Shown here: positions 53,258 through 64,000 of the stretch, piece after piece
Layout: each line of letters starts with the position of its first letter
Position numbering within the stretch: the stretch's first letter is position 1
NCBI GenBank assembly: GCA_018897295.1
Contig: JAHILA010000009.1
Span: 3,154-67,153, forward strand
Origin: Patescibacteria group bacterium
GTDB lineage: Bacteria > Patescibacteriota > Minisyncoccia > RBG-13-40-8-A
Length of the DNA: 64,000 nt
Reading direction: 5' to 3'
The notes under the pieces: generated by a model
The model's input: the letters and a program-made list of their open reading frames with translations, nothing else
Databases searched by the model: none
What the model was told of the DNA's origin: nothing
Made by a program: the position numbers and the translations under genes

Positions 53258-54271
53258 ATGAGATTAAAAATAAAGAACATACCATTGGCTACAATTATAC
53301 TAACAAGCATTTTTGCCGTTGGGTTAATTTTATTTGTAGGCGCTTTCTCTAAAAGAAGCGCTTTTTCCACATATAATTTATGGGGCGGCAAAGAAACCAT
53401 TATTGAGTCCGAAAGCAAAGACACAGACAATGACGGACTAAAGGACTGGGAGGAAAATCTATACAAAACCGACCCCTTGAATCCTGATACAGATGCTGAT
53501 GGATATTTAGATGGCGAAGAAATAAATTCCGGACATAATCCTTTGGTCAAGGGACCGAATGATAAACAGGTATTCTATCCTCTGCCCATTGGCAACAAGT
53601 ATAATATAACCAATCAGATATTCTCTGATTTTGATGCAATAGCAAAATCGTATATTGAGCAAAAAGACCAATATGTCAGAGATCATCCAGAAATCATTGA
53701 CCCAACGACATATATGGCCGAGGCATCTAAGGGCGCATTAGATGAAATGCTAAGAAGGGCTATGCTCTACAATGAAGCGGACTGGTCAGATAAGGCGAAC
53801 GCGGTTCTGGAAAAAAATCCGGAAATATTTCAGATTGAAATCTCAGATATTGATATAAAAATTTCCGATGACAATACTCCAGAAGCAATAAAAGCATATT
53901 TTGAAAAATTATCATCTTACGCAAAGTCAAATAATTTCCTTTTGCAAAACGAAAATTTCATCTTGTTGCAGGATTCTTTTCCCAATAATGATTTTGCCGA
54001 AGTGGATATTTTAATAATAATCAATGATGATGAAATATCTAAATTAGTTGATACCCCTGTTCCATCGTCATGGAAAGAATTACATAAAAACTTTTTAAAA
54101 ATCGCAATAACTTTGCGAAACATTTTTGTTTCTCTGAGAGGATTTGAATCTGACCCAATAAAAGCCATTATTGCGAACAATGAGATAAAAAATGTTTCAA
54201 GTCTTTGGAAATCTTTTGAACAAAATCTTCTAAAATTAAATGAATCGCAAAATCTAAATTTAGAATTATGA
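53258..54271 (+). CDS. Secreted protein with thrombospondin-type-3-like Ca-binding Asp-rich repeats (start moved to MRLKIKN)
   Basis: Signal/TM helix, then DTDNDGLKDWEE...DPLNPDTDADGYLDGEE. Confidence 0.5.
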   Translation: MRLKIKNIPLATIILTSIFAVGLILFVGAFSKRSAFSTYNLWGGKETIIESESKDTDNDGLKDWEENLYKTDPLNPDTDADGYLDGEEINSGHNPLVKGPNDKQVFYPLPIGNKYNITNQIFSDFDAIAKSYIEQKDQYVRDHPEIIDPTTYMAEASKGALDEMLRRAMLYNEADWSDKANAVLEKNPEIFQIEISDIDIKISDDNTPEAIKAYFEKLSSYAKSNNFLLQNENFILLQDSFPNNDFAEVDILIIINDDEISKLVDTPVPSSWKELHKNFLKIAITLRNIFVSLRGFESDPIKAIIANNEIKNVSSLWKSFEQNLLKLNESQNLNLEL

Positions 54272-57200
54272 AAAAACAGATTTTTACAATCTTGTTAATC
54301 GCAACAATTCTCGGTTCAACAATAGGCGCTTTCTTGTTTAATCCCAAAAAAGCAAATGCGGTTTTCGGAATCGGAGATATAAGTATAGATATAGTAAATC
54401 AGATTAAGGACTGGGTGCTTGATCAATTGCCAAAAACAGTTGCCAGGAGCATGATGGTCCGCTTGCAACAAGAAATAGCGCGCTGGGCCCAAGGGGGATT
54501 TACAGATCAAAATAAGCCATTTGCAATGATAAGCTGGAAACAAGAAGTTAAAAACGCATTGCAAATTGCCTCTAGCAGATTTGTTAGTGAATTCAATCTC
54601 ACTCCTCTCTGCTCGCCATTCAAAGTTTCCCTCGGCACTGCCCTTGGAATTAATATGCCTGGAGGCGCAATACCTTATAGAACATACGCTGCTTGTACAA
54701 TTAGCGATATTGTGGATAATGTTGAAGAATTTTACAAAAATCCATCCATTGCCATGTATGGATGGGATACCTGGACTGCATTAGCCCAGCCAAACAATAA
54801 TTTTATTGGTTCATTTATGATGGCGGTTTCAGAAAGGAAAAGATTAGAGCAGGAAGAAATAACAGAAGTGGAAAAAGAAGTTGAAGCTGGTCAAGGAATT
54901 AAAAATGAAGCAATATGCAATCTAACCGACCAGCAAGATTGCGCGACAAATTGCAACCAGTATCCTAACATCATAAACGGGCTTCCGAATCCACTTTATG
55001 TTGCTTGTATGAAATCCTGCGAAAAATCTTCAATCGGCGCTTGTCTTGAAAAAACCACCAAAAAACTCGGTTCAGAAATAAAAACCAGCGTTGACGAGGC
55101 AATTGGAAGCGATATGGGCTGGTTAATTACTGCGGACGAAATAACAGAAATGATGAATCTGGTATTTTCCGGATTATTCAATAAACTAACTCACGGCATT
55201 AATGGAATGCTAACCAAAGGAAGCTCTTCAACAACTATAATATCCAAGAACCAGGCAGAATACGGATATTATGAAGATTACAAAAAAAACCAGACACCAC
55301 AGGACATCACAAAAGTAAAAGGAGATATTCTAAATAATATTTTAAAATCAATCCAAGGCGTATCTACTGCAGGATATGCCTGCGACAAGAGTGAACAAAT
55401 AAAGGGTGATATTTTTAGAGAAGTGGCTACGGATGTTTTAAATGAAGAGTCGCAGCACCTTTATACAGTAATGGAAGGCATTAATTTGAAACCGGACTAT
55501 GAAGTTCTTGATACGCAGCCAGCAGTTGATAACAAAATAGCGATATATGGCAAAACCTGGGATGATGTTCCTTTTAATAAATATCCGGAAAAATGCGCCA
55601 GTATTGCAAATAAAAAATGTAGCGACATTAAAACCGGTCTGCCTTATGAATTGAGTATAAATAATATTAATAGCGAATGCGCTACGGGATGCCTGGAACA
55701 GATAAATAATTACCAGGCAGAATGCTTAAGTACATTTAACGGATGCGAATATAACTGTAAAGACGAAACATGCAAAACCGCCTGCCATACTGCATATTCA
55801 GCTTGCTATAATGCGGCAAAAACAAAAGCAGTTAATGATAAAAAATGCTCAAGCATCGCAGTTGCTGATGCCTGTTTGAATGGGCAGGCATTGATAAGCA
55901 AGGCAAGAAATAGTTGCAGCGACTGTGTTAAAAAATATGAAGATTTCTGCGCATTAAAGAAAACCAAAGCAGAAAAAGACCTTTGCGTGCAAGAAAGCTG
56001 CAGTAATTATGAAGATATAAGCTCATCAATTAAAAGCGCGCAGGATTTCTATGACCGCTGCGCTTTAAATGAAACGAAATACTCCTGCGAAGTTTGTTTA
56101 AAAGAATATTTTATGCCAGCGGATTATTGCGGACAAATTTATGACTATATAAACCGCGCATTCGTTAAATATCCTGCCTTGGTTTATCATAATACCTGGT
56201 GGGGAGGATGGGTCAATTTTGAAGGGCAGTCTGAAGAACTTCTTAAAAATCCCTTTGTTGCCTGCGCCCCTCCCAATAATTCAGAATTTCTTTCAACTGC
56301 TTTAACCTGCCGCATCTTGCCTGACTTCCAGTTTCCCGGAGGAGGAACCTGTAAAACATTATGCAAAACAACTGAGGAAGAATTAAAAAATATTACTGAT
56401 AATAAACCGCAGGAACTTGATTGCATTGGACCATTAAAAGATCCAGCGCATCCAGAATGGGGAGGAGTGTGGCGTTCCGGAGGTTTGAGCCCAGGCGGAC
56501 AATATGCTACTTATTTGGCCAAGAAAAAAATCAAATGCTGCGCTGCTGTAACCGGGCATATGCCAATGGATTATAGGCTATGCAGAGGGATTACGTCAGA
56601 TCCAGTAGCTGAGGAAGAATTAGAAGGATGGTGCGATGATAAAGGCAGACCACTATGGAAAAATCCGGAATGTTTTTGCGAGAAAGGTTGGCGGCCGATT
56701 GATCTCACAAAAAATACTACAACAGGTTCTGATTTTTATTCTCCATGGTATAATGTCGGTCGCGACGAACCAGAAGAAACATGCAGCAGGGCATCAGGCG
56801 GTGTCAATATTTTAGTACCAAATATGGCAAAAGCGAATAAGGCCATTCTTGAAACTAATTCTGCTGCAGGAGGAAGTATTGTATATGTTGCTGAACACGA
56901 AGCCATTGATCCAGATTTAAATTCTTGTTTATATGAAAAAGTTTGCGCTGGAACAAATTTGCCTCTATGTGAAAACAGAACAATGACAACAAGTTGTGAT
57001 TTTGTGGCAAATCCGCCTGCTGGTATAATTTGTTCTGAAGAAACCGTTCATACTCCATCTGCTTACAATTGTTGCAATTCCGGAGGAGTAGAAAGCGGGA
57101 AAGGAGTAATAAAAGTTGAATGCGATTTAAGCGGATACAGAAACCAAGAAGTGTTTTTGGGAGTTTATGATAATGATAAAACGGATTGCAGAACTGTAGT

Positions 57201-57315
57201 TCATATGTGTATTGAATGCGACCCCAGCGACCTTGGTTATGACGGAGGCAGTTATGGATTTAGAGACAAATTAGGTAATCCCATTGACCAATGCAATTGG
57301 AAAGTTGGGATTTAA
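54268..57315 (+). CDS. 1015-aa secreted cysteine-rich protein (~70 Cys)
   Basis: Signal peptide MKKQIFTILLIATILGSTIGAFLFNPKKANA. Dense CxxxC/CxC patterns throughout. No TM helix after the signal. Confidence 0.5.
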   Translation: MKKQIFTILLIATILGSTIGAFLFNPKKANAVFGIGDISIDIVNQIKDWVLDQLPKTVARSMMVRLQQEIARWAQGGFTDQNKPFAMISWKQEVKNALQIASSRFVSEFNLTPLCSPFKVSLGTALGINMPGGAIPYRTYAACTISDIVDNVEEFYKNPSIAMYGWDTWTALAQPNNNFIGSFMMAVSERKRLEQEEITEVEKEVEAGQGIKNEAICNLTDQQDCATNCNQYPNIINGLPNPLYVACMKSCEKSSIGACLEKTTKKLGSEIKTSVDEAIGSDMGWLITADEITEMMNLVFSGLFNKLTHGINGMLTKGSSSTTIISKNQAEYGYYEDYKKNQTPQDITKVKGDILNNILKSIQGVSTAGYACDKSEQIKGDIFREVATDVLNEESQHLYTVMEGINLKPDYEVLDTQPAVDNKIAIYGKTWDDVPFNKYPEKCASIANKKCSDIKTGLPYELSINNINSECATGCLEQINNYQAECLSTFNGCEYNCKDETCKTACHTAYSACYNAAKTKAVNDKKCSSIAVADACLNGQALISKARNSCSDCVKKYEDFCALKKTKAEKDLCVQESCSNYEDISSSIKSAQDFYDRCALNETKYSCEVCLKEYFMPADYCGQIYDYINRAFVKYPALVYHNTWWGGWVNFEGQSEELLKNPFVACAPPNNSEFLSTALTCRILPDFQFPGGGTCKTLCKTTEEELKNITDNKPQELDCIGPLKDPAHPEWGGVWRSGGLSPGGQYATYLAKKKIKCCAAVTGHMPMDYRLCRGITSDPVAEEELEGWCDDKGRPLWKNPECFCEKGWRPIDLTKNTTTGSDFYSPWYNVGRDEPEETCSRASGGVNILVPNMAKANKAILETNSAAGGSIVYVAEHEAIDPDLNSCLYEKVCAGTNLPLCENRTMTTSCDFVANPPAGIICSEETVHTPSAYNCCNSGGVESGKGVIKVECDLSGYRNQEVFLGVYDNDKTDCRTVVHMCIECDPSDLGYDGGSYGFRDKLGNPIDQCNWKVGI

Positions 57316-57333
57316 ATAAAATATTAAGCATAG

Positions 57334-59475
57334 ATGAATACAAAATCAAAATTTAAAATCGTAATACCAATAATTATATTAGCAGTGGTTGTTTCTGGAC
57401 TAGCCATGCCTAGTTCTGTTAATGCAGGAGTTTTGCATGAGGCAGGAAAAGGAATTTTTAGCGTACTTGGAGAGATTATACGAACATGTTTGATGAAACT
57501 ACTTACAACTGCTGTTTCGCTCTTTGAAGGAGCTTTGGGCATAGGATTTGACAGCAAAACCACTGAAGTTGTAAAAACAGGATGGACAGCGTGTAGAGAT
57601 TTCGCAAATATGCTGTTTATCCTTATTATGGTGATAATCGCTTTTGGCACTATTTTGCGCATTGAACAATATGGAGTGAAAAAACTCCTGCCAAAAATAA
57701 TAGGAATCGCGCTTTTAATAAATTTTAGTTTTGTGCTTTGTTCGGTGATTGTTGATTTTAGCAATATTACCGCTAATTTTTTTATAAAAGACATTAAAGG
57801 AAAAATCGGTAGTCAAGGCGGTGAAAAGGGAATGATAACAGCAGTATTCGCCGATGCTTTCAATATAACGGGGACGGCTATAACTATAACGGATTGTGAT
57901 AACATCTATAAAGGACTTATATCTAATTGTAAAAGTGATGCTGATTGTGTTGAAAATGCTAACGGAATATTAAAAAAATGCAGAAAAGACCAAGGAATAG
58001 AAGTCAAAGTGGAAGATGAAGCATTTCTTGATATTTTTTTTGGAATTGTACTCGGCTCTATAGTAATGATTATGGCTATTTTTGCTTTGTCTGCCGGAGC
58101 GCTAATGATTTTATTCAGAATAATAGCTATTTGGTTTTTAATAACAATCGTTCCATTGGCTTTTATATGTTATGCATTACCTGGACTTCAAGAAAATTGG
58201 AAAAAATGGTGGACAAAATTCTTGCATTGGTGCATATTCGCCCCTGCGTATACATTTTTTATCTGGATAGCAATACAAATAGCTACTACTCAGGCAAACA
58301 AAAAAATAGGCATGATTGCCAGCCAATATGCTATTACGGGAAATTATAAAGTAACTGCAAATGCTTTTCAGAGTAATCCTGGAGGAGAATTAATCAGTTT
58401 CTTTATTATTATTGGTTTTCTTGTTGGAAGTATAGTAGTGGCGCAAGCACTTGGTATCCATGGCGCAAATGCGGTTATGAAAATAGCCACAGATACCAAA
58501 AAAGGAGTAGCCGGATGGATGGGGCGACAAGCTATGCGACCAACAAAAGGTCTCGGCAGACTTGCAGGCGCCGGCGCTTTAACGGCAGGAGGAGCATTGT
58601 TTGGCGGAAAACTTGGCAGAAGAATGCGAGCTAGAGCTACCGAAATGAGAATGAGACCTGAAAAGGATCCTCGAAACGTAGCATATGAAAGATTAATTTC
58701 TACTATGTCAGACGGGGATGTAATGAAAGAATCAATGGTCAAAGGTATAACCCCAGGACAAAAAATCAGAAAATTAATAGCTACTCGCAATGCAGCCAGA
58801 AGAGGATTATTAAGAGATGCCACTACAAATGAAGCCGGGGAAGCAATGAAAACATTTAAGGGTTTCAATGATTTTGAAGCTTATCAAAAACTAAAAGAAA
58901 CAAGACTTGATGCCATAGAAAATAATACAGAACGAGATAATACAACCCAGAAAGTGGTTCAAGAAGGAAACATCAATAAAATTCCAGCCATTGCTCTTAA
59001 AGACGAACGCGTTGTTGCCGCCCTAGGAAGATTTGCATCGGCTGTTCAAATAGAATCATTAAGAAATGCCTCTCCTCAACACGCAACAAACTTAAAAACA
59101 TCGCTAGATACTTTAACTACTGTCGGAAACGCAATTTTATCTGGTATGAGCGCTTTGGACCAAGAAAAAATCCATCATTCTTATGCCTCTCAAACCGGTG
59201 ATATAGATCGTATGTCTTCTGCGCAACTAGTGAATTGGGCAAAGAAATCTGGTGCCGATGGGATTAAAAGAATTAGTTCAGCTAGTTCATCTGCCAACTT
59301 AGAAATTTTGGCAAATAATATGCCTACCAACCAACTTGCCAATATCGTTGAAAAAATGCAAGATAATGTAGCGGCTAAAAATATGGTAAGATATCTTTCT
59401 ACCGCAACAAGCCCAATTGCTGCTGCCAATAAATTCGCTGTTAATAATAATCCCTATCTTAAAACTCTTATCTAA
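57334..59475 (+). CDS. Polytopic membrane protein, VirB6/TrbL-like, with long hydrophilic C-terminal tail
   Basis: Signal/TM helix, then at least 6 hydrophobic helices and ~330 aa of hydrophilic tail. Position is upstream of the PrgI-like and VirB4 genes. Confidence 0.4.
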   Translation: MNTKSKFKIVIPIIILAVVVSGLAMPSSVNAGVLHEAGKGIFSVLGEIIRTCLMKLLTTAVSLFEGALGIGFDSKTTEVVKTGWTACRDFANMLFILIMVIIAFGTILRIEQYGVKKLLPKIIGIALLINFSFVLCSVIVDFSNITANFFIKDIKGKIGSQGGEKGMITAVFADAFNITGTAITITDCDNIYKGLISNCKSDADCVENANGILKKCRKDQGIEVKVEDEAFLDIFFGIVLGSIVMIMAIFALSAGALMILFRIIAIWFLITIVPLAFICYALPGLQENWKKWWTKFLHWCIFAPAYTFFIWIAIQIATTQANKKIGMIASQYAITGNYKVTANAFQSNPGGELISFFIIIGFLVGSIVVAQALGIHGANAVMKIATDTKKGVAGWMGRQAMRPTKGLGRLAGAGALTAGGALFGGKLGRRMRARATEMRMRPEKDPRNVAYERLISTMSDGDVMKESMVKGITPGQKIRKLIATRNAARRGLLRDATTNEAGEAMKTFKGFNDFEAYQKLKETRLDAIENNTERDNTTQKVVQEGNINKIPAIALKDERVVAALGRFASAVQIESLRNASPQHATNLKTSLDTLTTVGNAILSGMSALDQEKIHHSYASQTGDIDRMSSAQLVNWAKKSGADGIKRISSASSSANLEILANNMPTNQLANIVEKMQDNVAAKNMVRYLSTATSPIAAANKFAVNNNPYLKTLI

Positions 59476-59489
59476 ACTAAAACTAAATT

Positions 59490-59873
59490 ATGCCGGATTA
59501 TACTAATGAATTTAGAAAAAAGGTTAGTCAATTACCTCCAGAAATAAAAGAGGTTATGCTTTCCGATAAAACAACAAGTTTAATATCTGAAATTAATAAT
59601 AAATACAAACTAAACGCGAAACAAAGCGATAAACTTCCCATCCTTATTGGAAAAATTTTCATTAAAGAAATTTCTTTCGGAGATTTTATCAACTTATTAA
59701 AAACCCAACTAAACATTGACTCTGAAATCGCAAAATTAATAACCATTGATATTGCTAAAAATATTTTTATTCCGATAAAAAGATACTTTCCAGGAATAGA
59801 ATCTTTAACGCCAAATACTACCCAACCTAAAAATGAAAATATTGTTAATCTAAAAAATTTAAATCGCGAATAA
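59490..59873 (+). CDS. Hypothetical protein in the T4SS-like cluster
   Basis: ORF only. Confidence 0.35.
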   Translation: MPDYTNEFRKKVSQLPPEIKEVMLSDKTTSLISEINNKYKLNAKQSDKLPILIGKIFIKEISFGDFINLLKTQLNIDSEIAKLITIDIAKNIFIPIKRYFPGIESLTPNTTQPKNENIVNLKNLNRE

Positions 59874-59879
59874 TACAAA

Positions 59880-60308
59880 ATGCAATTTCAAGTCCCTCAA
59901 TTTATTGATATTGAAGACAAGGTTATCGGGCCTTTGACAATAAAGCAATTCCTGTATTTACTGGCAGCAGGAGCAATCATTTTTATCCTCTATAAAATCC
60001 TGAATTTCTATGCAATAATTATTCTGGCAATACCTATTCTCGGAATCACTATTCCTCTTGCTTTTATAAAAGTCCACGGCCAGCCGTTTATAAGTATAGT
60101 TAGCAACTTCTTCAGATTTTTAAGAAAACCGGATTTCTATGTCTGGAAAAAACCAATTGGCAAAAAACCGGCTCCAGAATCAGAGGAAACGGAAAACATC
60201 AAAATTATAAAGAAAATTACGGATAAAAAGGGGCAAAATAAGCCCATAGCAAAGAATAGTTTACAGGACTTAAATTGGAAGGTTGAGACCAATAAAGAAG
60301 AAGCGTAG
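59880..60308 (+). CDS. PrgI/TcpE-like small membrane protein (VirB3 analogue)
   Basis: N-terminus MQFQVPQFIDIEDKVIGPLTIKQ followed by two TM helices. Lies directly upstream of VirB4. Confidence 0.45.
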   Translation: MQFQVPQFIDIEDKVIGPLTIKQFLYLLAAGAIIFILYKILNFYAIIILAIPILGITIPLAFIKVHGQPFISIVSNFFRFLRKPDFYVWKKPIGKKPAPESEETENIKIIKKITDKKGQNKPIAKNSLQDLNWKVETNKEEA

Positions 60309-60322
60309 GAAGAATAAATAAT

Positions 60323-60952
60323 ATGCCTATAAAATTACCCAAAAACGTCTCGGGAATACAAAAATTCATCGAGGTCAAAGAAATAAAGAATGGAGTAGCA
60401 ATTATGAAAGACAATAGTATAAAAGCTGTTTGCGCCTGCTCCAGTATTAATTTTGACCTCTTGAGCCAAGTAGAACAAGAAGCATTAGTTGCCCGATTTC
60501 AAGAATTTCTTAATGCCCTTGATTTCCCAATCCAGATAATCATTGCTTCCCGCCATTTCCAAATTGATGATTATTTAAATCAAGTCAAAGAACTTGAGAA
60601 AATACAAACCAATGAACTCCTAAGAATCCAGACCAATGAATATATCAATTTTGTCCAGAGCTTTGTTGAATTCGCAAATATAATGAGTAAGTCGTTTTAT
60701 GTTATCGTCCCTTTCAGCGTTATGGAGTCCAGGCAGGAAGGATTTTTTGAAAAAGTAAAAAACATAATTTCCAGCGCAAAATCTTCAAAACAAAAATTTG
60801 AAACGGAAAAATTCAACCAATACAAAACCCAGCTTGAACAAAGAGTAAATATGGTTGTAGATGGATTACGGGGTCTCGGCATAAAAACCATTCCTTTAAA
60901 TGATGAGCAATTAACCCAGCTTTATTTTGAATTTTATAATGTAGAAAGATAA
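60323..60952 (+). CDS. VirB4-family N-terminal domain, encoded as a separate ORF
   Basis: IEVKEIKNGVAIMKDNSIKAVCACSSINFDLLSQVEQEALVARFQEFLNALDFPIQIII matches the N-terminal region of Gram-positive VirB4 proteins (TrsE/PrgJ/Orf16-like). Confidence 0.5.
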   Translation: MPIKLPKNVSGIQKFIEVKEIKNGVAIMKDNSIKAVCACSSINFDLLSQVEQEALVARFQEFLNALDFPIQIIIASRHFQIDDYLNQVKELEKIQTNELLRIQTNEYINFVQSFVEFANIMSKSFYVIVPFSVMESRQEGFFEKVKNIISSAKSSKQKFETEKFNQYKTQLEQRVNMVVDGLRGLGIKTIPLNDEQLTQLYFEFYNVER

Positions 60953-60957
60953 ATGTT

Positions 60958-62751
60958 ATGAGTTTATTCGGAAAGAAAAAATTAGCAATTGAAGAAATTT
61001 CGGAAATAGAAGAAACAGCTGAAATTGAAGCGAGTTTGGCTGATACGATTGCGCCTTCCGCTCTTCAGATTACTTCTAATTACATCCAAATCGGCGAAAG
61101 ATTCGCCCGCACATTTTTCATCATCACTTATCCCAGATTTTTGACTGTTAATTGGCTTTCGCCGATAATAAATCTGGACAGAGTGCTGAATGTTTCAATG
61201 TTTATCCATCCTACTGATACAGGAATAATCCTTAAAAAACTAAAAAGAAAAATAACACAAATAGAATCGCAGGTAAATATGGAGCAGGAACAAGGCAAAA
61301 TAAGAAATCCGATCCTGGAGACCGCTAGAGGCGATGTAGAGGATTTACGCGATAAATTAGTCCAAGGCACTGAAAAATTCTTCAAATACGGGCTTTACAT
61401 CACGATTTTTGAAGATTCAGTTGAAAAGCTCAATGAGGCAGAAGAACAAATAATGTCTTTATTTGAAGCAAAAATGGTTTATGCCAAACCAGCAATATTC
61501 CAGCAAGACGCAGGTTTAAACTCAACCCTTCCGCTTGGCAAAGATCAACTATTTATCACTAATTCGATGAACACAGCCCCGCTCTCCACTGTTTTCCCTT
61601 TTGTATCTTCAAATCTATCTTCAAATAAAGGTATTCTTTACGGAATAAACCGCCACAATAACAGCTTGATTATTTTCGACCGCTTTTCAATGGAAAACGG
61701 CAATATGGTGATTTTCGGAAAATCCGGAGGCGGAAAATCTTATGCAGTTAAAGTGGAAATTCTCAGGTCATTGATAATGGGGACAGACGTGATTGTTGTT
61801 GATCCGGAAAACGAATACCAGCATTTAGCTGAAACAGTTGATGGCGCCTATTTCAAAATTTCCCTGTCCTCTAATAGCCATATTAATCCTTTTGATATTT
61901 CTGCGCCCGGACCGGATGAAACAACAGAAGATGTTCTGCGTTCAAAGATAATGGATTTAGTAGGATTATTGAGAGTTGCTCTCGGGGAATTAACTCCTGA
62001 GGAAAATTCAATTTTAGACAGAGCGCTGACTGAAACTTACGCTTCTAAAGATATTACAATCCAATCTGACCTGAAAAATGTCACTTCGCCGCTAATGGAG
62101 GATTTAGAAACAGTGCTTGATAATATGGAAGGAGGAGATAGAATCGCGAAACGATTACAGCGCTATACTAAAGGAAGTTTTGCCGGATTTTTAAACCAGC
62201 CGACAAACATTGATATCCATAAAAAACTTATTGTATTCAGCACCAGGGATATGGAGGATGAGTTAAAGCCAGTGGCAATGTTTTTAATATTGCAATATAT
62301 CTGGAATCTCATTCGCTCAGATATGAAGAAGAGAATTATGGTTGTTGATGAGGCATGGTGGATGTTAAAAAGCGAAGCTGGCGGGTCCTTCCTTCATGGC
62401 ATTGCCAAAAGATGCAGAAAATACTGGCTTGGGCTCACAACAATCACCCAGGATATTCCGGATTTTATGAGCTCACCATACGGCAAGCCGATTGTTTCAA
62501 ATTCATCGCTCCAGATTCTCTTCAAGCAATCTCCTTCCAGTATTGAAGTTGTGCAGCAAACATTTAATCTGACTGATGAAGAAAAATATCTGCTTTTACA
62601 GGCAGATGTTGGAGAGGGGATATTTTTTGCCGGATTAAAACATGCTGCGATTAAGGTGGTGGCATCCTATACCGAAGACCAAATTGTAACCACTAATCCG
62701 GAACAAATAGTTAAAATTAATCAGGCCAAAGAAGAATTAGCAAGACAATAA
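60958..62751 (+). CDS. VirB4/TraC-like T4SS ATPase (C-terminal ATPase portion)
   Basis: Walker A GKSGGGKS. Walker B VVDEAW. 597 aa. Confidence 0.75.
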   Translation: MSLFGKKKLAIEEISEIEETAEIEASLADTIAPSALQITSNYIQIGERFARTFFIITYPRFLTVNWLSPIINLDRVLNVSMFIHPTDTGIILKKLKRKITQIESQVNMEQEQGKIRNPILETARGDVEDLRDKLVQGTEKFFKYGLYITIFEDSVEKLNEAEEQIMSLFEAKMVYAKPAIFQQDAGLNSTLPLGKDQLFITNSMNTAPLSTVFPFVSSNLSSNKGILYGINRHNNSLIIFDRFSMENGNMVIFGKSGGGKSYAVKVEILRSLIMGTDVIVVDPENEYQHLAETVDGAYFKISLSSNSHINPFDISAPGPDETTEDVLRSKIMDLVGLLRVALGELTPEENSILDRALTETYASKDITIQSDLKNVTSPLMEDLETVLDNMEGGDRIAKRLQRYTKGSFAGFLNQPTNIDIHKKLIVFSTRDMEDELKPVAMFLILQYIWNLIRSDMKKRIMVVDEAWWMLKSEAGGSFLHGIAKRCRKYWLGLTTITQDIPDFMSSPYGKPIVSNSSLQILFKQSPSSIEVVQQTFNLTDEEKYLLLQADVGEGIFFAGLKHAAIKVVASYTEDQIVTTNPEQIVKINQAKEELARQ

Positions 62752-62752
62752 T

Positions 62753-63166
62753 ATGGAAACAGCTATATCACAAAGAGAGCAAAGCGCCAAGTTGAATCAG
62801 GATAGAGCAAAAACAGATTCAACATCAAAGCAAAAAAGCGAAGAGTCCTCTCCTGATTTTTTGGGGCTGATAATTTTTCTTCCACTTGCCGTAGTGGCTG
62901 ACCTTTTAGGCGCACTTGATTTAACCGGTTTTGGGGTCATATTAGTCAGAATTATAAATATTCCTATTCTGGGCATCTTGTGGTTATGGAGGATTTTAAA
63001 ACAAGGACCAGGAAAACAAAGCTATTCCTATCAATTGATACTTACTTTTTTAGTGGAATTATCTCCATTCGGTATAATTCCCACCTGGACTACATTCGTT
63101 CTTTATTGCTGTTTTAAAGACACCAAATTAGGTAAACAAACAATCGGAAAAATGAAAAAAATATGA
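62753..63166 (+). CDS. Small membrane protein (2-3 TM helices)
   Basis: ORF with hydrophobic helices. ATGA overlap with the next gene. Confidence 0.4.
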   Translation: METAISQREQSAKLNQDRAKTDSTSKQKSEESSPDFLGLIIFLPLAVVADLLGALDLTGFGVILVRIINIPILGILWLWRILKQGPGKQSYSYQLILTFLVELSPFGIIPTWTTFVLYCCFKDTKLGKQTIGKMKKI

Positions 63167-63897
63167 ATAAAATATTTTCCATTATAATCATCTCAATTTT
63201 ACTGGGCGTCCCGTCCACAATTTTTGCCGCGGACAGCGCTTCGGATGTCAGAATAAATAAATTTGAATTAATCTGGTCTGCTGATACATATACTCCGTAT
63301 AATTATCAAGGGAGAAATCTTCCAACAATAGGAAGCAAGGTTATAATTGACGTAGTAATTGACACTTCCGGCGGCAATCCTTTAAATCTAAAATACAGCT
63401 GGTTTTTAGAAGATATTTTCCAGCAAAGCAAATCCGGATACGGCAAAGATAGTTTCTATTTTTATGTCCAGCAGAGGCCTGGCGCATACCATACTGTAAG
63501 ATTGCAGATATTTAATGATGACAGGACGGTTTTTGAAGAAAAATCCATTCAAATTCCAATAGCTGAACCTGAAATTATCTTTTATTCCTCCAATGGCAAT
63601 TCTCATTTTTCCAATCAAGCGAGCACAATTTACACTTTTTTGGCCGGCAAGACATTTTCTTTTGTTGCCAGGCCTTATTTCTTCAGTATTAATAAATTGA
63701 CCGATTTAATCTTTGAATGGACATTCTCGGGCAAAGAATCAATAATTTCTTCGGATTATGATGCAAGTATTTTCAATTTAACTATATCGGATAAGAATAA
63801 TGGACAAACCATTAAAAGTGACCTATGGGTAAACGTTAAAAATATTTTGGACGAAACCCAAAATGCTTTCAAATCAATGAAAATTAATATTTATTAA
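63163..63897 (+). CDS. Secreted hypothetical protein
   Basis: Signal peptide MNKIFSIIIISILLGVPSTIFA. Confidence 0.45.
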   Translation: MNKIFSIIIISILLGVPSTIFAADSASDVRINKFELIWSADTYTPYNYQGRNLPTIGSKVIIDVVIDTSGGNPLNLKYSWFLEDIFQQSKSGYGKDSFYFYVQQRPGAYHTVRLQIFNDDRTVFEEKSIQIPIAEPEIIFYSSNGNSHFSNQASTIYTFLAGKTFSFVARPYFFSINKLTDLIFEWTFSGKESIISSDYDASIFNLTISDKNNGQTIKSDLWVNVKNILDETQNAFKSMKINIY

Positions 63898-63898
63898 A

Positions 63899-64000
63899 AT
63901 GAAAAAATTTTTACCCATTATAATTTTCATCATCTTATTCGCAGGAGCGTGGCAAACCTGCCAGGCGATTGATTTGCTTATAAAGGATTATCCCAGTATA
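63899..64000 (+). CDS. Secreted hypothetical protein, 3'-truncated by the window edge
   Basis: ATG at 63899. MKKFLPIIIFIILFAGAWQTCQA signal-like N-terminus. Confidence 0.35.
   Translation, partial: MKKFLPIIIFIILFAGAWQTCQAIDLLIKDYPSI

Follow-up and report, generated by a model that had tools for sequence, protein, structure and literature searches.

[quoted passage not shown]

The gene cluster at the end of the window (the whole 64,000-nucleotide stretch of DNA that was analysed) is very probably the core-genome type IV secretion system (T4SS) of Patescibacteria (CPR), of the Paceibacteria/Portnoybacteria kind, with a VirB4 made of two polypeptides and most likely a role in host contact rather than conjugation. 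It belongs to a phylum-specific VirB4 clade nested within single-membrane conjugation machinery (MPF-FATA), and the Gram-positive-type T4SS of the preliminary description, with its VirB6-like, PrgI, VirB4 order, holds. That description had also guessed at a CPR organism, in agreement with an identical protein annotated 'Patescibacteria group bacterium'. The system, including TrsD, the missing relaxase and the dnaA/ksgA/rnpA location, has already been published between 2023 and 2025 (PMC10633639, PMC12102498). All nine co-directional ORFs were recovered where they had first been placed, with spacings of -4 to +18 nt, and the cluster reads as follows:

53258..54271, + strand: TSP3-repeat (calcium-binding type) protein, membrane-anchored, 337 aa (Pfam TSP3_bac, 6.8e-11)
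54268..57315, + strand: Cys-rich giant, secreted or N-terminally anchored, 1015 aa, 54 Cys
57334..59475, + strand: extended VirB6/TrbL-like polytopic membrane protein, 713 aa (TM prediction, homologues)
59490..59873, + strand: variable soluble protein, 127 aa, an optional insert between VirB6 and PrgI
59880..60308, + strand: PrgI family protein (VirB3 analogue), 142 aa, two TM segments (Pfam PF12666)
60323..60952, + strand: TrsD-like/TraC-like protein, 209 aa, free-standing first half of the VirB4 N-terminal domain
60958..62751, + strand: VirB4-family ATPase, 597 aa, second half of the N-terminal domain plus Walker A/B ATPase domain
62753..63166, + strand: conserved membrane protein, 137 aa (position-conserved orthologues)
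63163..63897, + strand: conserved secreted protein, 244 aa (position-conserved orthologues)
63899..64000, + strand: VirB2-like T4SS pilin, first 34 codons (signal peptide), cut by the window end

Within the cluster, none of the genes could be recognised as VirB1- or VirB8-like.

VirB4 is divided at the junction ...AGA TAA atgtt ATG, where, as originally noted, a TAA and a frame change separate two ORFs of 209 + 597 = 806 aa; the gap is 5 nt. The two align contiguously to VirB4: residues 13-183 of the smaller ORF correspond to positions 2-168, and residues 18-559 of the larger to positions 178-728, of the CD1110-family VirB4 profile (752 positions), and in the fused relative P0249 (797 aa) they match residues 1-208 (38% identity) and 229-796 (55% identity), respectively. 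The 209-aa ORF covers nearly the whole NCBIfam TrsD/TraD profile (NF041427; E 2.7e-06, 27 bits, cutoff 200), and its family carries the precomputed Pfam assignment PF26593, TraC-like. For its AF2 model the best 13 Foldseek matches in the PDB are all TrwK/VirB4 chains of R388 (weak in absolute terms, E 4.6e-3, TM 0.45), which are also the sole PDB fold matches with a probability above 0.8. The 597-aa ORF exceeds the NCBIfam cutoff for CD1110-family VirB4 (3e-113, 379.6 bits versus 325); matches to Pfam P-loop_TraG (1.7e-29), AAA_10 and DUF87 bear out the Walker A/B ATPase proposed for it, and residues 218-578 match the VirB4 C-terminal domain in PDB 4AG5 (4.2e-43). Assignment of the N-terminal domain to 60323-60952 stands for its first half: the 209-aa ORF corresponds to only the first ~170-240 positions of canonical VirB4, while the second half of that domain lies in the 597-aa ORF (residues 1-217), together with the ATPase domain.

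Three explanations of this split had been offered, namely a pseudogenising mutation, a sequencing error and a genuine two-subunit form. That a single 806-aa gene had recently been broken by mutation, or had been misread or misassembled, might be suspected from the 5 nt between the ORFs and from the rare fused relatives P0249 and P0273 (898 aa). These two are, however, the exceptions among the best 150 cluster representatives (50% identity), the small ORF standing alone in 148, and each of the 120 homologues listed for the 209-aa ORF is a stand-alone protein of 163-224 aa (50-100% identity). Over ten loci the junction measures anything between -29 and +45 nt and all three frame relations occur, with two ORFs kept each time, and the arrangement is identical in independent assemblies from NCBI, Logan, ENA and JGI. 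Purifying selection acts strongly on both ORFs (dN/dS 0.083 for TrsD and 0.039 for VirB4), and TrsD is reported to be widespread and, in S. epibionticum, essential. Homologue lengths, the rarity of fusion, the junctions and dN/dS led us to reject a pseudogene or sequencing error, which is exceedingly improbable. The split is genuine, ancient and conserved, a TrsD and VirB4 gene pair, and is already known: the 2025 description records TrsD in 2,221 of 3,035 patescibacterial genomes, adjoining virB4 in 1,664 (PMC12102498).

The membrane components differ in how directly they can be named. PrgI, the small VirB3-analogue predicted earlier, is recognised by Pfam (PF12666; 2.4e-09, 38 bits, cutoff 27) and has TM segments at residues 19-37 and 45-63. 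The 713-aa protein is assigned as VirB6/TrbL-like indirectly, because it has six predicted TM segments and because its full-length homologues P0342, P0344 and P0358 (30-36% identity) lie at the cutoff of Pfam TrbL PF04610 (25.4-31.1 bits, cutoff 25.9); other homologues carry a precomputed PF19590. The earlier VirB6/TrbL-like label, with a long tail (hydrophilic, ~330 aa), is thus consistent with topology and homologues, although neither Pfam nor NCBIfam gives a direct VirB6 match. The gene behaves as a recombination cassette: its product is 41% identical to that of locus L005, compared with 85-97% for flanking genes, and its dS is 1.9 versus 0.3-0.66 in other cluster genes. Mosaics occur in both the Cys-rich and VirB6-like genes, and one tract, 98.4% identical to L012, covers the 3′ end of the former and the 5′ part of the latter. 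The 127-aa protein, which matches no family in profile searches, has counterparts as a separate ORF between VirB6 and PrgI in L010 (72%) and L020 (38%) and embedded in longer ORFs of L012 and L014; it is absent from L003, L005 and L019, and L005 has a 23S_rRNA_IVP gene between PrgI and TrsD instead.

Small membrane and secreted proteins had been expected after VirB4, and both were found. The 137-aa protein has hydrophobic segments between residues 37 and 81, matches no family in profile searches and has an orthologue in the equivalent place in each complete cluster (35-87% identity). The 244-aa protein begins with a signal-like segment, gave no match in a profile search of PDB sequences and has orthologues at the equivalent position (41-88% identity). 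The VirB2-like pilin call rests on 102 nt within the window and on the orthologue in L005: the translation of 63899-64000 (MKKFLPIIIFIILFAGAWQTCQAIDLL...) matches the N-terminus of that orthologue, which scores 29.2 bits against Pfam T4SS_pilin PF18895 (cutoff 26.6).

We propose that the VirB6-like protein and PrgI would form a membrane platform, and that the VirB4 motor may be assembled from two chains, TrsD providing half of the N-terminal domain and the 597-aa protein the rest plus the ATPase. In R388, the VirB4 N-terminal domain contacts VirB3 at the membrane; by that precedent, TrsD would anchor the ATPase hexamer to PrgI at the membrane. With only 5 nt between stop and start, the two genes may be translationally coupled, and TrsD and VirB4 would then be made in matched amounts. 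The small membrane protein, the secreted protein and the pilin encoded downstream, joined in relatives by a beta-propeller-like secreted protein, would be compatible with a pilus or tube outside the cell. Such a machine most likely builds a contact structure toward a host cell and moves macromolecules across it. Essentiality and a role at the host interface are extrapolated from another class, the Saccharibacteria, in which T4SS genes are essential for epibiotic growth (PMC10633639).

It is also possible, if unlikely, that the machine mainly imports host DNA, RNA or nucleotides, in the direction of the Ced systems, instead of exporting material or assembling a pilus. Patescibacteria are without nucleotide synthesis of their own, host-RNA acquisition is described in a 2026 preprint together with tubular structures, possibly T4SS pili, at the host interface, and the window encodes PNPase, RNase J, RNase Y, an SNase-family nuclease and ComM. 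The ATPase is weakly similar to the archaeal DNA-import ATPases CedB (4.5e-12) and CedD, but the Ced scores fall far under the family cutoffs (45 versus 700 bits), and CedA/CedA1/CedA2-like partners were not identified; transport direction, moreover, cannot be read from sequence. A comEC mutant of S. epibionticum loses competence yet stays viable, and DNA uptake through ComEC therefore fails to explain the essentiality of the T4SS.

The genomic setting bears on whether the proposed host-contact machine might instead belong to an integrative conjugative element or plasmid as its transfer module, moving DNA by conjugation. Its closest relatives outside CPR are conjugative VirB4s (CD1110 family, Mbov_0397 ICE family, TraC), TrsD, PrgI and VirB6 are conjugation components, and the recombination mosaics show DNA exchange between lineages. 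The cluster is, however, chromosomal and lies in a housekeeping region. In relatives the order is KsgA, (Lnt), TSP3, Cys-rich, VirB6, PrgI, TrsD, VirB4, 137-147 aa, 244-267 aa, pilin and ~390 aa, followed on the opposite strand by Wzy, flippase, Jag, YidC and RnpA and then by dnaA. Gene order and dnaA side are kept in L003, L005, L019 and L020, including one 626-kb chromosome, and in these four syntenic relatives the cluster lies ~6 kb from dnaA. The flanks, PcrA and KsgA in the window and Wzy, YidC, RnpA and dnaA on the other side in relatives, keep their order at 61-91% TrsD identity, the GC content of the cluster is similar to that of the remainder of the window, and there is no att-like context. 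Relaxase, coupling protein (T4CP) and integrase domains were found neither in any window ORF scanned nor in the complete clusters of relatives, in keeping with the earlier suggestion that plasmid conjugation may not be the function, and the genes around the cluster include no type IV pilus or competence machinery. The 2025 survey of Patescibacteria T4SSs reports PrgI, VirB6 and VirB2-like pilins, proximity to dnaA, ksgA and rnpA, and relaxases in only 103 of 3,035 genomes (PMC12102498). Given the housekeeping location and the lack of an accompanying relaxase or coupling protein, we infer host-contact transport or pilus assembly, and a conjugation apparatus appears very unlikely; some small chance of DNA transfer is left because VirD4-like genes are distant from virB4 in most Patescibacteria, so that a coupling protein might be encoded elsewhere (PMC12102498).

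The two genes at the 5′ end have no counterpart in the literature searched, where no description of a TSP3 and Cys-rich pair upstream of VirB6 was found. For the TSP3 gene the most likely start is ATG 53258, as set by gene callers in L001, rather than TTG 53225, where the longest ORF begins; its product has a single, N-terminal hydrophobic segment, and its dN/dS is 0.083. The orthologue lies directly 5′ of the Cys-rich gene in 16 of 16 loci with enough sequence (44-100% identity). The giant contains 54 Cys (5.3% of 1015 aa), not the ~70 first counted, with an even number in 34 of 37 family members; it has no Pfam domain and no significant PDB match by sequence or fold. It is a lineage-restricted, fast-evolving, disulfide-rich surface protein and the sole undescribed part of the system. 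The pair could be cell-surface proteins with no link to the T4SS beyond lying next to its operon: neither carries a T4SS family signature, the Cys-rich family is narrow (38 clusters; 12 of ~185,000 species genomes, for the patterns used), and T4SSs in other patescibacterial classes evidently function without it. We think this improbable, though worth keeping in mind, since wherever enough flanking sequence is available the pair directly precedes the VirB6-like gene and is co-directional with it, over 26-91% identity. In the window the TSP3 gene overlaps the Cys-rich gene by 4 nt and 18 nt separate the latter from VirB6; the pair stays with VirB6 where lnt is inserted between KsgA and TSP3, and the recombination tract spans the Cys-rich and VirB6 segments as a unit. 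This conserved adjacency and tight spacing suggest that both proteins belong to the T4SS machine, perhaps as lineage-specific extracellular parts (adhesin, tip or cell-wall-spanning scaffold), and the diversity of the pair, like the exchange of VirB6 cassettes, may reflect adaptation to the host surface.

Among known systems, R388 Trw (PDB 7O41, 8RTB, 8RTD) provides the TrwK/VirB4 chains that the TrsD model resembles, and the ATPase domain matches TrwK residues 445-735; R388, however, spans two membranes, includes VirB7, VirB9 and VirB10 and has its VirB4 in one chain, and sequence identity is only 9-12%. In the staphylococcal pGO1/pSK41 system, too, a small TrsD with homology to the N-terminus of VirB4 precedes the ATPase (TrsD/TraD + TrsE/TraE), although the window TrsD falls far below the cutoff of the corresponding profile, NF041427. 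Unlike the window cluster, the pGO1 system is plasmid-borne, includes a relaxase and a coupling protein and lacks a pilin, and its subclass is described as having no VirB6 homologue (PMC12102498). The Firmicutes T4SSs of CTn2/CD1110, to whose VirB4 family the window ATPase belongs by curated cutoff, and of pCF10 (prgH-prgI-prgJ) share the VirB6-like, PrgI, VirB4 order; in contrast to the pair described here, their VirB4 is a single polypeptide of ~750-800 aa, and they are encoded on mobile elements with relaxase, T4CP, cell-wall hydrolase and LPXTG adhesins (PrgB), without a VirB2-like pilin. The closest likeness is to the Patescibacteria-clade T4SS (PMC12102498; S. epibionticum SEML1_0006-0019, Wang et al. 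2023, PMC10633639), which has the same TrsD-VirB4, PrgI/VirB3, VirB6 and VirB2-like pilin, the same chromosomal place near dnaA, ksgA and rnpA, as in Paceibacteria, and likewise no relaxase or coupling protein within the cluster. The present lineage has one pilin gene, compared with arrays of 2-11 in Saccharimonadia. Whereas the published survey states that 'No adhesins ... were detected' and describes no cysteine-rich component (Quinonero-Coronel et al. 2025, PMC12102498), the loci compared here consistently carry, 5′ of VirB6, genes for a TSP3 protein and a disulfide-rich protein (1015 aa in the window).

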